Source: Terriglobia bacterium (GTDB lineage: Bacteria > Acidobacteriota > Terriglobia > JAJPHL01 > JAPKYU01). Taken from it: a DNA stretch of 64,000 bases. The translations under genes and the position numbers were made by a program. The stretch covers positions 480,001 to 544,000 of the forward strand of contig CBDCVK010000010.1 of assembly GCA_965223005.1 (NCBI GenBank). Reading direction: 5' to 3'. Positions 447-47,635 of the stretch are shown piece by piece (position 1 is the stretch's first letter; each line of letters opens with the position of its first letter). Under the pieces are notes generated by a model. The model ran no database searches, was not told the DNA's origin, and was given only the letters and a program-made list of their open reading frames with translations.

Positions 447-465
447 CGAACTTCGAGACCGCGGG

Positions 466-565
466 CTCTCCTTTCCAAACACGGGAGGCGCAGCCGTTTC
501 CCGCTACACCCTATCGGCTCCAGGCCATAGTCCCGGGGGACGTTAGGCTCTGCGAGCTCGGAGAA
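466..565 (-). ncRNA. Moco/Tuco riboswitch-type RNA motif
   Basis: Minus strand CUCCGAGC..GCCUAA-hairpin-UAUGGC..UAGGGUGUAGCGGGAAACGGCUGCGCCUCCCGUGUUUGGAAAGGAG. It has a GAAA tetraloop, a CCUAA/UAUGG receptor and the GCCUCCCG..UUGGAAAGG 3' block typical of moaA-leader Moco RNAs, and lies directly upstream of moaA. Confidence 0.9.
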
Positions 566-855
566 ACCGAAATTGGCGATCGTATCAGTGGCTATTGTAT
601 CAGGTTACTGGGAATACCGTCTCAGGCAACTCCAATCACCTGCACCGACATGCCCCGCTCCCTGGGACCATCCAGTCGACCAGTATGACGTCCCTAACAC
701 CAACTCCGTTGGACCTCGCCGGTCATTCGAAACCGGCGCATTATACCACCGGCAGAAAGGAGAGGAAAGAAGGCCAGTCGAACGTCAGGAACTGCAGTTT
801 TTCTGATAGGATAGACTGTGAATCGGAGCATTCCATTTCCCAGGTAGGAGCTGAT

Positions 856-40411: not shown

Positions 40412-40506
40412 TGGCGGAAGGTTATGGGAATCGAACCCATCGCTGCTCGTGAGAAACAGCCACCGGCTTTGAAGGCCGGGCGAGTCACCAGACCCGATTA
40501 CCTTCC
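40412..40506 (-). tRNA. selC: tRNA-Sec (UCA)
   Basis: 95 nt: GGAAGGUA acceptor, 6-bp D stem with 4-nt loop, CUUCAAA anticodon loop, long variable arm, T loop UUCGAUU and GCCA end. Confidence 0.96.
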
Positions 40507-43781: not shown

Positions 43782-44327
43782 TCATCCCCCGGCAGACAGA
43801 CGACTGCAAACCGCATAGGCGCCGTTGGGGTCAATCGCGCTCCCGCCTTTCTCGATGTGGCGAATGATCCCCTGCTTATCCACCACGAAGGTGACCCGCA
43901 GAGCGAAGTTGCGCTCGGGATCCAGAATCCCGTATTTCTTGCTGACCTCGCGCATGAAGTCGCTCAGAAGCGGAAACTTCACCCCGAGGTCTTCGGCGTA
44001 ACGACGATTGGCGTAAGAGCTATCCACGCTGATGCCCAGCACCTGCGAGCCGGTCTTTTCGAATTTGGCGATATCATCCTGATACGCCTTCAGTTCCTTC
44101 GTTCAACCACCCGTGAATGCCAGGACGTAGAAGGCCAGTACCACATTCTTCTTCCCCTTGAAATCGCTCAACCGGACCGGCTTGTTGTTCTGATCCGGAA
44201 GCGTGAAATCGGGCGCGGAATCGCCTACTTTCAGATGGGTCATGACGTCGGGTGGCGGCTGAGCCGGGGCCAGACTGAGTGGCGCGGGCAGAATCAAAGC
44301 CAGTGCCAAAGCTGTTCGACAAACCAT
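43782..44327 (-). CDS. AhpC/TSA peroxiredoxin, selenoprotein (UGA at 44103-44105)
   Basis: Two ORF-track pieces join in frame as VLAFYVLAFTGG-U-TKELKAYQ..VLGISVDS..FPLLSDF. The UGA sits at the peroxidatic TxxC position and a SECIS-like hairpin follows. N-terminal signal peptide. Confidence 0.92.
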
Positions 44328-44505
44328 ACGCCTACCTCCAGTTTCTTGCAATTTCGGGATTTGCACAGGATTCCGTCGATGCGCTCGTTCCTTGCACGAC
44401 CCCCGAATTATGTACCCAAATCCTGGCTTCGTCCAGTTTTTGGTAGCGGACACTCCACTGCGGCGAGGGTCCTGCAGCGGCGGTGGGAGTCCACGGCTTT
44501 CCATC

Positions 44506-44534
44506 TTGACACCACGAGGACCCGAAGCTAGGAT
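44506..44534 (+). promoter_or_regulatory. Sigma70 promoter
   Basis: TTGACA-17 nt-TAGGAT. Confidence 0.7.
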
Positions 44535-44561
44535 GCGCCTACACGAGAAAGGAGGTGGTCG

Positions 44562-44609
44562 ATGTTGCAGGATCCATTATGTAGGCCCCGTGAGGTGGTC
44601 GCGCCTTAG
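44562..44609 (+). CDS. 15-aa small ORF MLQDPLCRPREVVAP
   Basis: Directly downstream of the promoter and of the extended SD AGAAAGGAGGTGGTC. Confidence 0.55.
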   Translation: MLQDPLCRPREVVAP

Positions 44610-44843
44610 GGCGGAATTTGCCTCAGAGCCGTCGTGTTTTCTTTCTGCTTGCCTGTGGCTGTAGAATTCCGCCTCAGGTACTCTTACGCGGCTACCGGCG
44701 CCGGGCAGGAGGGGTTGGCCCTTCGGCCCGGCGTTTCGCTTCTATCAGGGTGCTGAAAATTAGCGACTGGATCCGCTCAGAACCGTTTTCTGACGCCCGC
44801 AGTTCCTTAACTGTAACCACTTGTCAAGCCGCAACCCACTGAT

Positions 44844-45917
44844 CTAAAACAGCTTGAACTTGATGGTCAGATACTTTTTCGGGTCCTTCCGGAAGTCGGC
44901 GATCAGGCCGCGCATCTCCAGGCTGAAGGTATTGACGTTCTCATAAAACGCCTGGTCATGAAGGAACCTGCCGAAGGAACCCTCACCGCGTTCCAGCCGG
45001 CCGGCGATCTTGTCAATACGGCCCATCGCGGAATTGGCTCGGTTGTAAAACGATTCGTCCTTCAGCAGCCGGCCGACCGTCCCACGCCCCGCGTTCACGT
45101 CAGTAACCACGCGATTGGCCCGGGTCATCAACTGGTCGGCGTTTTCGTAGAGCCCGGGATCATAGATGAACCTGCCCAGGGAACCCTTGCCCTCGCGCAC
45201 TTCGTCAAGCACTCCGTCCACTTTCGTCACGCTGCTTCGGATCTCGTCGTACAGGTCTTCGGTCATGATCAGCTTGCCCAGGGTCCCCTTTCCCGCAGCA
45301 GCATTGGAAATTAGAAGGCGCGCGTCATTCACGGTCTGGTCCGCCTTCCGCCACAGCGCCTCGTCGTAGAGGAGCTTTCCCAGACTGCCTTCTCCGGACT
45401 CGACCTGCTCTATAACGCGGTCCACACGCCCCGCGATGCGATTGAGTTTGGTCATTGCGTCGGCGCCCGTAGCCAGGACCTCACTGAGTTCCGGGGTTTC
45501 CTTGAGCTTGATCTCCCCGCCGGCCTGGATCAGCGGCTGCCCGGGACTGCCCCGGGTAATATTGATGAAGCGTTGGCCCAGCAGCCCTTCGGCATCCAGG
45601 CGGGCCAGGGAGTCGGTGCGCAGTTCCTGCTGATACTTGCGCAGGATGCGCATGACCACCTCCACCGACCGGTCGGGCTCGTGGCTGCCGGAGACGCGGA
45701 TTTCCGCCACGTTGCCCACGTCAATGCCGGTCAGGCGCACCGGGTCGCCGGTCTTCAACCCGGCGGCGTCCTCCATGAAGACGCTGATGAGATATTTGCG
45801 CTCCAACAGGCCTTCGCCAGTCATCAGGAAGACCACGGTGGCAAAAATGATCAGGCTGGTCAGGACCAACAGGCCAACGCGCAGTTGGGTCCACTGAAGT
45901 TGCTTGGGTTGCGGCAT
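44844..45917 (-). CDS. mlaD: MCE/MlaD family protein
   Basis: N-terminal TM; AGLKTGDPVRLTGIDVG, GLLGQRFI and repeated GSLGKLL helices. Confidence 0.9.
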   Translation of the reverse strand: MPQPKQLQWTQLRVGLLVLTSLIIFATVVFLMTGEGLLERKYLISVFMEDAAGLKTGDPVRLTGIDVGNVAEIRVSGSHEPDRSVEVVMRILRKYQQELRTDSLARLDAEGLLGQRFINITRGSPGQPLIQAGGEIKLKETPELSEVLATGADAMTKLNRIAGRVDRVIEQVESGEGSLGKLLYDEALWRKADQTVNDARLLISNAAAGKGTLGKLIMTEDLYDEIRSSVTKVDGVLDEVREGKGSLGRFIYDPGLYENADQLMTRANRVVTDVNAGRGTVGRLLKDESFYNRANSAMGRIDKIAGRLERGEGSFGRFLHDQAFYENVNTFSLEMRGLIADFRKDPKKYLTIKFKLF

Positions 45918-45935
45918 GCGACCTCCTCAAGGAAA

Positions 45936-46751
45936 CTACAAGACAAACTTTCGCACGTATGAGTCCTGCGAGCGAAACAGTTCCTGATGGCTGCCGTCGA
46001 AGACGACTTCGCCTTCGCGCAGGACCAAGAACGAAGTGTTGGTGTCCACCTGTCGACCGTCGGAATCAGCGGGCAGCAGGCGACCAGCCGTTTCATCAAA
46101 ATAGTAGTTGGCCACCACGTCGGCGTCCTGGAGGCGGTGCGTCACCAGCAGGCTGCTGACGTCCTGCAGGTCGCCCAGACGGATGATCAACGAGACGATG
46201 GCACGTCCGGTGAGCGGGTCCAGGCCGCCGGTGGGCGAGTCGTAGAGCATCAGTGGCGGCTCGCCGACGAAAGCTCGAGCAATCGCCACCCGGCGGCGCA
46301 TGCCGCCGGACAGCTCCGAGGGCAATTTTTGCATGGCGTCTTCCAGATCCACAAAGCGCAGTGCCTGGCGCACCCGTCGCTCCTCCTCCTCGGGCGGCAG
46401 GGCCCGGTCCCCCTGGAAGACGTAGCCGACGTTCTCGGCCACGCTGAGCGAGTCGAACAGCGCGCTTTCCTGGAACACCATGCCGATTTTCTGCCGGATG
46501 GGCTGCAGTGTCTCCTCGCCGAACCCGGTGATGTCCTCTCCAAAAACCGAGACGCGACCCGAATCGGGACGGAACAGCCCCAGCGCCGTCTTCAGCAACA
46601 CCGATTTGCCCGAGGCCGTGGCTCCCAGCAGAACCTTGGTTTCGCTGCGCGCGAGCCGGAAGCTGATGTCGTGCAGCACCGGTGCATCGTCCAGGGTCAG
46701 TTGGACCCGGTCGAACTCCAGCACTACCTCCGAACTGCGCTCCAGCGCCAT
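45936..46751 (-). CDS. mlaF: MlaF-type ABC ATPase
   Basis: GATASGKS, FQESALFDSL and LSGGMRRR motifs; Walker B reads YDSP. Confidence 0.9.
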   Translation of the reverse strand: MALERSSEVVLEFDRVQLTLDDAPVLHDISFRLARSETKVLLGATASGKSVLLKTALGLFRPDSGRVSVFGEDITGFGEETLQPIRQKIGMVFQESALFDSLSVAENVGYVFQGDRALPPEEEERRVRQALRFVDLEDAMQKLPSELSGGMRRRVAIARAFVGEPPLMLYDSPTGGLDPLTGRAIVSLIIRLGDLQDVSSLLVTHRLQDADVVANYYFDETAGRLLPADSDGRQVDTNTSFLVLREGEVVFDGSHQELFRSQDSYVRKFVL

Positions 46752-47530
46752 TACATGACGGCCAGGAGGAACTTGGTAATGAAGAAATCGGTTGCCAGGA
46801 TCAGCACCGAAGCGGCCACCACCGCTTGGGTCGTCGAGCGTCCCACCCCCTCGGTGCCGCCGCGGGTGGTCAGTCCGAAATAACAGCCCACCATGGAGAC
46901 GATGAAACCGAAAACGAACGGCTTCACCAGGCCCTGGAACACGTCTTCGAAGTGCAGGGCCTGATAGGCGCTGGTCCAGTACTGGATCGGGTCCATGCGG
47001 ATGATGAAGAAGGAAACCACGAAGCCGCCGATCAGACCCACGAAATCGGCGATCACCGTCAGCAGCGGCAACATCGTCACTGTAGCCACCACCCGAGGGG
47101 TCACCAGTTTCTTGCTGGGGTCGGTGCCCAGGGCGCGCATGGCGTCTATCTGCTCGCTCACCGCCATGGAGCCCAGCTCACTGGCCATGCCAGAACTGTT
47201 GCGCCCGGCCACCATCAACGCCGTCAGAACCGGTCCCAGCTCTTTGACTAGCGACAGGGCCACCAGTTGACCGGCGAGGGAGACAGCTCCGAAAGTTTGC
47301 AGCATCTGGGAGGTCTGCAACGCCAGCACCGCCCCGGTGAAGAACCCGGCCAGGATCGCAATAGGCAGCGAGCCTACACCGATGATGTCCATCTGGACCA
47401 GAATGTCGGCCCAATAGCGGGGGCGGGAGAAGAGGTTTCTGATGGCCCGCGCGCCCAGAAAGGTGAACTCCTGGACGGCGAAGACTTTGCCTTTGGCAAA
47501 ATCGGCAGGCAGGGTGAAGATGCGGTTCAA
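46751..47530 (-). CDS. mlaE: MlaE-type ABC permease
   Basis: [21 protein letters not shown] and GVGRSTT motifs; start set at TTG 47530. Confidence 0.92.
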
Positions 47531-47635
47531 GGTGATTCGTTTTTCCTCACCGCGCGGCTTCCAAATTCCAATGTAACACAAACTGCCCGCTCCGACGCAC
47601 ACGCCCCCAGCGGTACAATAGAATGCCAACGAGCG

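Follow-up and report, generated by a model that had tools for sequence, protein, structure and literature searches.

A stand-alone small RNA in a Terriglobia genome, distantly related to Ms_IGR-5, may be a translated, ribosome-engaging switch

What is the role of a short transcribed unit that carries an exceptionally long ribosome-binding sequence, a reading frame of only 15 codons and no same-strand gene close behind it? The question is raised by a locus in the Terriglobia bacterium assembly GCA_965223005.1, within a 64,000-nucleotide stretch of contig CBDCVK010000010.1 (positions 480,001 to 544,000; hereafter the window, to which all coordinates below refer). A first-pass annotation of this DNA described a small transcript with a near-consensus promoter, a Shine–Dalgarno (SD) block complementary to the end of 16S ribosomal RNA, a 15-residue open reading frame (ORF), a repeat of the SD motif within that frame and a long 3′ stem, and proposed either an unannotated micropeptide gene or an RNA that binds or sequesters ribosomes. 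These architectural features were all recovered in the analysis presented here. They probably belong to a stand-alone, constitutively promoted, structured RNA of ∼200 nt, a divergent homologue of the Ms_IGR-5 small RNA (sRNA), that acts by engaging the ribosome rather than through a useful peptide. The locus is, judged from its sequence, a divergent acidobacterial relative of this little-studied actinobacterial sRNA, and the best reading is of a translated, ribosome-engaging switch RNA.

The gene stands alone at 44541 to ∼44743 on the plus strand and specifies an RNA of ∼203 nt. Its features are as follows:

44506–44534, plus strand: sigma-70-type promoter, with a −35 box TTGACA (44506–44511), a 17-nt spacer and a −10 box TAGGAT (44529–44534).
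44541–44743, plus strand: small RNA of ∼203 nt, from the span of the Rfam RF02471 alignment, the covariance model R1 (72.4 bits) and RNA-library contigs.
44546–44560, plus strand: SD1, AGAAAGGAGGTGGTC, a 15-nt complement of the 16S 3′ tail with one G-U pair.
44557–44587, plus strand: helix P1, pairing GGTC at 44557–44560 (the 3′ end of SD1) with GGCC at 44584–44587 (codons 8 and 9) and enclosing the start codon.
44562–44609, plus strand: mini-ORF of 15 codons followed by TAG at 44607–44609, encoding the peptide MLQDPLCRPREVVAP.
44592–44603, plus strand: SD2 (GAGGTGG, codons E-V) together with the 5′ strand of helix P2, GGTGGTCGCG (44594–44603), identified by repeat, pairing and covariation.
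44610–44673, plus strand: P3, a variable long hairpin pairing GGCGGAATT (44610–44618) with AATTCCGCC (44665–44673), supported by a constrained fold.
44679–44686, plus strand: unpaired junction separating P3 from P2 on the 3′ side, TACTCTTA, which in relatives is an AATC-containing motif.
44687–44696, plus strand: the 3′ element CGCGGCTACC, the 3′ strand of P2, just before the terminator.
44699–44743, plus strand: terminator hairpin (arms 44699–44713 and 44719–44733) and U-rich tail TTTCGCTTCT (44734–44743).

A permissive Rfam scan (E values up to 10) identified one family at the locus, with no other family close. RF02471 (Ms_IGR-5, ‘Actinobacteria sRNA') aligned from end to end, model positions 1–184 matching 44541–44743 with a score of 31.9 bits (E value 1.6e-5), below the family's gathering score of 45. 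The 5′ block of the family is present in this copy, comprising ACAC, the extended SD sequence, the ORF through GAG GTG and a stop three codons after GTG, and the 3′ helix of the model falls on the terminator hairpin, in an alignment that contains gaps and mismatches. Of 41 related genomes, 13 carried RF02471 matches, among them all four from the genus and 4/4 from a sister family, whereas none of 14 control genomes did; two of the 14 matched places (L014 and L015) lacked the motif on reading and were dropped. The best relative, from the same order (G010), scored 55.2 bits, above the cut-off, with the other relatives at 22–41 bits. Given the end-to-end alignment and a relative that exceeds the family cut-off, what the first-pass annotation considered an undescribed element in part matches a described Rfam family. 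The locus was assigned as a relative of Ms_IGR-5 and not as a member because the score cut-off was failed, the taxonomic range differs and the 3′ domain appears simpler.

The likeness to Ms_IGR-5 extends to the order of the parts (5′ ACAC, extended SD, a mini-ORF ending in ...EVAxx-stop, a variable hairpin and a 3′ hairpin) and to the stand-alone, single-copy organization. By contrast, this copy resides in Acidobacteriota while the stated range of the Rfam family is Actinobacteria, its ORF has 15 codons rather than 12, and a plain terminator hairpin appears to take the place of the branched actinobacterial 3′ domain, no separate inner hairpin with a GUCC loop being seen in this copy. According to the available excerpts of the literature, IGR-5 of M. 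smegmatis corresponds to ncMSMEG15794c and was re-detected in a cold-stress study (PMC10454040), homologues were validated by RNA sequencing in two Streptomyces species (PMC8079986, PMC8780764), and MS_IGR-5 was listed as one of the sRNAs whose ribosome-protected reads were significant in M. abscessus and M. smegmatis (PMC4974804); these excerpts give neither a function nor an ORF for the RNA. A literature search, which did not cover the founding paper (Li et al. 2013) or any supplementary tables, returned nothing on the mini-ORF, on P2 or on occurrence outside Actinobacteria, and queries with Rv0812/Rv0813c-linked sRNA names and their ncRv variants returned only a different small ORF.

The RNA has the signals of an independent transcription unit. 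The promoter agrees with the consensus at 10 of 12 positions, and two promoter-like sites were found in 1.2 kb, compared with 0.5 ± 0.7 in shuffled sequence. In all 12 acidobacterial copies compared, TTGAC(A) and TAnnnT boxes occur at a fixed distance from the conserved ACAC while the spacer sequence differs between copies, and a T-rich stretch lies upstream of the promoter. The start of the RNA was placed at this ACAC, 7 nt after the −10 box, and its end at the U-rich tail that follows the terminator hairpin. The 15-nt inverted-repeat arms of the terminator are 87% complementary and are followed directly by TTTCGCTTCT; a strict terminator rule called no site at the locus, and relatives display a hairpin and T run at the same place, with clearer T runs. 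The conserved promoter, the terminator and a convergent downstream gene agree with the earlier view that the transcript stands alone and is not a leader. Seven further loci, L148–L154 from acidobacterial family f13, display no obvious TTGACA/TAnnnT boxes; what they have in common, immediately before the SD block, is ∼40 nt of conserved G+C-rich sequence, which could be an additional 5′ domain or another type of promoter.

Metatranscriptome contigs provide a moderate hint, not proof, of an abundant small transcript. Two runs of one study (X1 and X2) contained contigs of 219 nt (44553–44771) and 157 nt (44557–44713), identical to the window, that were the sole cover of the 1001-nt interval 44100–45100, with parts of the flanks bare, and a second study, in which the sequence was 95–99% identical, contained a 171-nt contig at 44562–44733; such contigs carry neither strand nor ends, may include DNA and cannot prove absence.

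Is the SD block more than a chance resemblance to the 16S complement? The 3′ end of 16S rRNA in the same genome is GGATCACCTCCTTTCT, with which SD1 forms 15 contiguous pairs including one G-U, matching all of the free tail, so the complementarity first proposed against a typical 16S tail is upheld against the organism's own. All GGAGG sites on both strands of the 3.24-Mb genome were ranked by the run of pairs formed in register with this tail. The run of 15 at SD1 is the longest among 10,703 sites, save for the antisense strand of 16S itself (16); the runners-up, three sites, have runs of 14. The complement is judged to be beyond chance because it is the top run of all GGAGG sites in the genome outside the 16S antisense strand. 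The feature is common to the family, in which it measures 15–17 nt and is conserved across phyla, and the SD1 core is invariant in alignments A1 and A2. The start codon, ATG, begins 1 nt after SD1, at 44562, as noted in the first reading. Only a single base lies between the 15-bp duplex and the ATG, so that docking is a likelier role for the full duplex than initiation.

The mini-ORF occupies 44562–44609. In 115 distinct SD1-to-stop strings, derived from 128 loci, a stop codon lies exactly five codons after the GAG of SD2 in 114 (TAG 91, TGA 12, TAA 11), and the same 114 contain an in-frame start 4–16 nt after GGAGG (ATG 59, TTG 42, GTG 13) with no intervening stop. The other two frames passed the same start/stop test in 15/115 and 0/115 strings, and the sole exception among the 115, L073 from Rhodobacteraceae, lacks an ORF and was rejected as a chance pattern match. 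For comparison, TAG ends 36% of the long ORFs in this genome, a background that applies to this genome only. Across copies the ORF is 11–20 codons long and the SD1–SD2 distance falls into all three classes modulo 3 (61/29/25), showing that the start codon tracks the frame. Although the search pattern imposed GGAGGTGGTC and GTGAGGTGG, matches found by covariance model only, on which no pattern was forced, keep the design of start, frame and stop with variant spellings of SD1 and SD2. Conservation of these three features across four phyla supports the view, from comparative sequence data, that the ORF is under selection for translation.

Is the peptide, then, the product? If so, the 11–20-residue peptide, or its conserved C-terminal R-[TP]-x-E-V-A-x-x, would be the effector, for example as a cis-acting ribosome-arrest peptide, and the RNA structure would tune its synthesis. 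The retention of start, frame and stop in 114/115 strings fits such a micropeptide gene, as do the position of the conserved residues at the C-terminus, which recalls arrest peptides, and the Terriglobia-type copies, which keep MTSSD with third-position variation. The conserved residues, however, R-T or R-P followed by E-V-A, are encoded by the nucleotides of P1, the SD-like motif and P2, and the last two residues of the peptide change together with the 3′ element. GAG and GTG have almost no synonymous alternatives, even in model-only matches, and in 65 distinct actinobacterial ORFs of 12 codons the entropy of the first six codons by position (1.30/0.91/0.97) displays no third-position excess. 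MLQDPLCRPREVVAP is, like the related peptides, short and polar or charged, and neither Pfam nor NCBIfam returned a family for a 22-residue read of 44541–44606, seven residues of which derive from upstream of the ATG. We therefore regard a micropeptide gene as unlikely. The part of that proposal that stands is an ORF selected to be translated, while a functional peptide is not favoured by the lack of third-position bias in the actinobacterial set; the conserved residues coincide with RNA constraints, and the Terriglobia-type copies show a weak codon signal. In some copies of the Rokubacteria/Planctomycetota type (L094, L074 and L166–L169) the last codons of the mini-ORF, directly after SD2, spell CCTCC, the anti-SD core, and some copies of this type contain a third GAGGTGATC inside the ORF.

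The second of the earlier proposals, a ribosome-binding or -sequestering RNA, is a possibility. In its pure form the RNA would be an untranslated decoy or sponge that only binds the 30S anti-SD, through SD1 and, when exposed, SD2, with an incidental ORF. Ordinary SD sequences are far shorter than this 15–17-nt complement of the 16S tail, which is the top site in the genome and conserved across phyla, and with 1 nt between the full duplex and the ATG, full pairing and start-codon placement probably cannot coexist. An incidental ORF, however, would not keep its start in frame while the SD1–SD2 distance shifts phase, nor would it confine the stop position to TAG, TGA or TAA in 114/115 strings. 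A purely untranslated sponge leaves the conserved start, frame and stop unexplained, and this alternative is accordingly given little credence.

What, then, does the remainder of the RNA contribute? The 10-mer GAGGTGGTCG occurs at 44552–44561 and again at 44592–44601, 40 nt apart, the second copy lying inside the ORF as first described. The 3′ element forms 10/10 standard pairs with 44594–44603, constituting P2, and 8/8 with 44554–44561. GAGGTGG is common to SD1 and SD2, which is why the 3′ half of SD1 can serve as an alternative partner of the 3′ element. Over 48 mixed-phylum copies P2 is 92.7% paired and 7/10 pairs have changed on both sides. The 48-copy set, and a set of 81 used for energies, were trimmed or chosen by the SD2 duplex itself, which favours P2; because the first set had been trimmed at the duplex-predicted element, the test was repeated on 41 actinobacterial windows of fixed 200-nt length, a test free of this bias and confined to Actinomycetota. 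P2 was 95.1% paired in these windows, with 5/10 pairs changed on both sides. None of 500 shuffles reached the observed pairing percentage or covariation score, one of 500 reached the count of pairs changed on both sides, and sliding the partner lowered pairing to 23–60%. The RF02471 model leaves the 3′ element unpaired, and P2, the long-range helix that hides SD2, is absent from it.

Helix P1 was read in this copy directly from the sequence and includes one G-U pair. Its equivalent, a GUCC:GGAC helix between the R-T/R-P codons and the final bases of SD1, is 90.1% paired over the 48 sequences. The arms of P3 form a perfect, 100% complementary 9-nt inverted repeat, the long 3′ stem of the first-pass annotation, with the stop codon (44607–44609) at the base of the hairpin; its length and sequence differ among relatives. 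A further pairing suggested earlier, between a 5′ GCCTACA and TGTAGGC, did not survive: its GCC (44537–44539) is upstream of the start placed at ∼44541, and relatives do not preserve the pairing. An AAT(C/T)C-type block is conserved just 5′ of the 3′ element in alignments A2 and A3. In actinobacterial copies the GGAC of the ORF can also face a GUCC in the loop of the 3′ hairpin (A3 columns 43–46 and 232–235; 87.5% paired, no pairs changed on both sides), a possible pseudoknot in which the ORF segment is the same GGAC that partners the SD1 flank in P1; no equivalent of this loop pairing was seen in the present copy. In one Nocardioides copy the ORF has GGAT and the loop ATCC.

The RNA thus contains three mutually complementary segments, SD1, SD2 and the 3′ element, a layout characteristic of a switch. 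Across the 81 copies the mean energy of the duplex with the 3′ element is −19.0 kcal/mol for SD2 versus −10.6 kcal/mol for SD1, SD2 being the stronger partner in 80/81. In the present copy the two states are nearly equal (−87.8 kcal/mol with P2 and P3 versus −90.6 kcal/mol with SD1 paired), a consequence of the duplicated 10-mer. The helix drawn by Rfam, between SD1 and the two codons after SD2, is 96.7% pair-compatible in Actinomycetota.

A working cycle can be proposed from this arrangement. In the resting fold SD1 would be available, apart from the short helix P1, and P2 would hide SD2. A 30S subunit could dock on the single-stranded 5′ end through SD1, displacing P1, after which the ribosome would translate the mini-ORF and unzip P2. 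With the stop codon in the A site, SD2 would lie 8 nt upstream of the last sense codon; as this spacing resembles the 6-nt gap that separates SD1 from the start codon here, the anti-SD may re-pair and hold the terminating ribosome. The freed 3′ element would then pair with the 3′ half of SD1, closing it until P2 re-forms; the duplicated 10-mer makes this pairing unusually strong in the present copy, and in Actinomycetota the two codons after SD2 could pair with SD1 as well. In this manner, translation would switch the RNA back and forth between a state with SD1 open and one with SD1 closed. The output at the level of the cell could be the sensing or buffering of free 30S subunits or of translation capacity, the stability of the RNA itself, or control of a partner, all of which are candidates only.

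Several observations weigh against this ribosome-driven switch or the identity assigned to the RNA. In addition to the sub-threshold Rfam score, the selection of the 48- and 81-copy sets by the SD2 duplex and the ambiguities inherent in RNA-library contigs, a 1088-nt contig of the second study (run X5) spans from 44579 into the neighbouring gene. The unconstrained minimum-free-energy fold pairs the 3′ element with SD1 and not with SD2. For the SD1 helix with the codons that follow SD2, all 500 shuffles equal the observed value; covariation has no power for helices involving SD1 because SD1 is invariant. Finally, 20 Terriglobia-type ORFs gave entropies of 0.33/0.23/0.70 with MTSSD kept, a weak wobble bias in the first codons, so that the peptide may have a function in some clades.

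The structural data bear also on a conventional trans-acting, base-pairing sRNA, dual-function or not, in which a seed in the 3′ half would recognize targets and the ribosome motifs would serve the RNA's own expression. A stand-alone gene with its own promoter and terminator is typical of what this model expects, the AAT(C/T)C-type block is conserved and unpaired, and a foreign Hfq was used when the family was first isolated, judging by the title of a paper cited in PMC10454040. Against it, neither P3 nor its loops show sequence conservation, conserved single-stranded sequence other than SD1 is limited to 4–5 nt, with no conserved seed, and intramolecular pairing accounts for the 3′ element. 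A trans-acting role of this kind therefore appears rather improbable.

How far does the design extend? Homologous units of SD, ATG, SD and stop, for which a genome search had been advised, were sought by an exact-pattern scan of one genome per species with two motifs and a variable gap. The scan returned at least 117 loci, mostly from Actinomycetota (Micromonospora, Mycobacterium/Mycolicibacterium, Rhodococcus, Nocardioides and others); among the matches listed, many were from Acidobacteriota, few from Rokubacteria and one from Planctomycetota. The covariance model R1, built from the 48 mixed-phylum copies, was then applied under strict filters to samples of the four phyla and of one acidobacterial class. 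It detected the RNA in 22/151 genomes of Acidobacteriota, with a patchy distribution by family (7/10, 5/5 and 3/7; not found in most other sampled families), in 73/151 of Actinomycetota (a count that includes six unpublished genomes, G192, G209, G239, G273, G279 and G311), in 70/81 of the Rokubacteria phylum (including the unpublished G370 and G399), in 8/101 of Planctomycetota, of which ∼5 were accepted, and in 31/101 of the acidobacterial class. There is one copy per genome.

Three planctomycetal matches were dropped, L170 on account of a different SD2-to-stop spacing and L171 and L172 (genomes G472 and G436) as they lie on the antisense strand of the 16S 3′ end. The latter two are weak matches to R1 with an E value of ∼1e-3, and they illustrate how nearly the sRNA, in its 5′ block, reproduces an exact complement of the 16S tail. 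An occurrence in Firmicutes was likewise rejected. The sole case, L027, is in an 8.4-Mb metagenome-assembled genome (G190) whose public label, ‘Heliobacteriaceae', conflicts with its GTDB class, the sample of which consists of acidobacterial genomes; the label looks wrong, or the bin mixed. Among the samples and matches examined there is no evidence of copies outside the four phyla.

The surroundings of the gene vary. At this locus the downstream neighbour, an MlaD-like ORF (44844–45917, minus strand), is convergent on the sRNA gene, and the upstream neighbour, a peroxiredoxin-like ORF, is divergent from it; no same-strand gene follows for ∼3 kb. A conserved neighbour was sought by clustering the flanking ORFs of 129 loci, using crude gene calls (stop-to-stop ORFs with a filter on G+C content at third codon positions), and only clade-specific neighbours emerged. 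Mycobacteria-type loci have a class IV aminotransferase and GCV_T upstream and a THAP4-like gene downstream, and Terriglobales loci a flavoprotein upstream and NUDIX downstream, compared with the peroxiredoxin and MlaD found here. Also clade-specific are a drug-efflux-type MFS transporter on the same strand downstream in some Actinomycetota (L067, L113 and three similar loci) and a fused ABC transporter upstream of the sRNA in others (L031, L042 and similar). A cis-acting leader-peptide attenuator of a downstream gene, which the layout of SD, short ORF, competing helices and terminator and the same-strand MFS transporter of Nocardioides-type loci might suggest, is very improbable, as the next gene here is convergent, with the same-strand gap noted above, the neighbours vary by clade with the commonest conserved downstream ones convergent (THAP4-like, NUDIX and MlaD), and no segment was seen that could sequester the terminator arm.

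Other features were observed in the vicinity. The convergent block 44844–47629 (minus strand) encodes, from reading of the translations, an MlaD-like protein (357 aa), an ABC ATPase (271 aa) and a permease (292 aa), and looks like an Mla-type lipid transport operon; the next plus-strand gene resembles TsaD. The peroxiredoxin-like gene (43782–44330, minus strand) is interrupted by a single in-frame stop, its ORF pieces being 44103–44504 and 43782–44042 (minus strand), and the first piece ends ...LAFTGG immediately before that stop. Elsewhere in the window, gathering-level Rfam matches were a tRNA-Sec at 40416–40506 (minus strand, 78.5 bits) and a molybdenum/tungsten cofactor riboswitch at 452–575 (minus strand, 72.2 bits).

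Comparison with known systems helps to define what a ribosome-engaging switch of this kind would be. Leader-peptide attenuators and the sRNAs derived from them, such as rnTrpL of Sinorhizobium (PMC6614838), share the promoter, SD sequence, very short ORF, mutually exclusive helices and intrinsic terminator, and there too the RNA, once released, can exist as a separate molecule. The present RNA differs in having neither a downstream operon nor a run of regulatory codons, and no antiterminator helix was evident on reading the sequences, although no systematic search was made. Dual-function sRNAs, as far as the excerpt of PMC12310071 describes them, are likewise small RNAs with a translated small ORF, translation in the present case being supported by comparative evidence; unlike them, the peptide here is mostly not conserved and the conserved codons are RNA motifs. 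Transfer-messenger RNA (tmRNA) is also a structured RNA with a mini reading frame read by the ribosome, but this RNA has its own SD and start codon and lacks a tRNA-like domain; ARAGORN found no genes in 44300–44900, and the permissive Rfam scan gave no tmRNA match. Type I toxin mRNAs are distinguished by their hydrophobic, membrane-active peptides, in contrast to the polar or charged peptide encoded here.

The closest analogy, and an analogy only, may be with 6S RNA and Ms1 (the latter in PMC4191392), which occupy RNA polymerase and are abundant, widely conserved, context-free RNAs that imitate the natural nucleic-acid ligand of a core machine. For this RNA the imitated ligand would be the mRNA initiation site presented to the ribosome. 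There is no homology, the target here would be the 30S anti-SD, and the RNA appears to be translated, so that the ribosome is not simply held. Extended further, the analogy yields a speculative proposal, to which we assign a low probability, of a housekeeping ‘ribosome-checking' RNA, the ribosomal counterpart of 6S/Ms1, in which the 5′ end would pair with every free nucleotide of the 16S tail, a dispensable mini-ORF would give one self-limiting round of translation, and SD2 and the 3′ element would reset the molecule.

Ribosomal protein bS21 sits near the anti-SD. The sRNA does not appear to be a substitute for bS21: PF01165 was present in 150/151 Acidobacteriota (a tally that includes the unpublished genomes G063 and G086), among them the genome studied here, and the sRNA in 22 of the same 151, with no anticorrelation.

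With respect to novelty, the Ms_IGR-5 family itself is already known in Rfam, while the conservation of the mini-ORF, the P2 helix and the spread over several phyla are apparently new, as we found nothing on them in print. The Ms_IGR-5 design occurs, as a single copy per genome, in at least four phyla: in the samples, about half of the Actinomycetota, most of the Rokubacteria phylum, parts of the Acidobacteriota and a few Planctomycetota. Selection keeps the start codon, frame and stop of the mini-ORF rather than the peptide. If the ribosome-checking proposal is true, cells would use the RNA to gauge or buffer free, competent 30S subunits, or to test-drive subunits with a freshly matured 16S 3′ end. 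A widespread, context-independent RNA that is apparently built for ribosome handling would be a new kind of translation-linked regulator.

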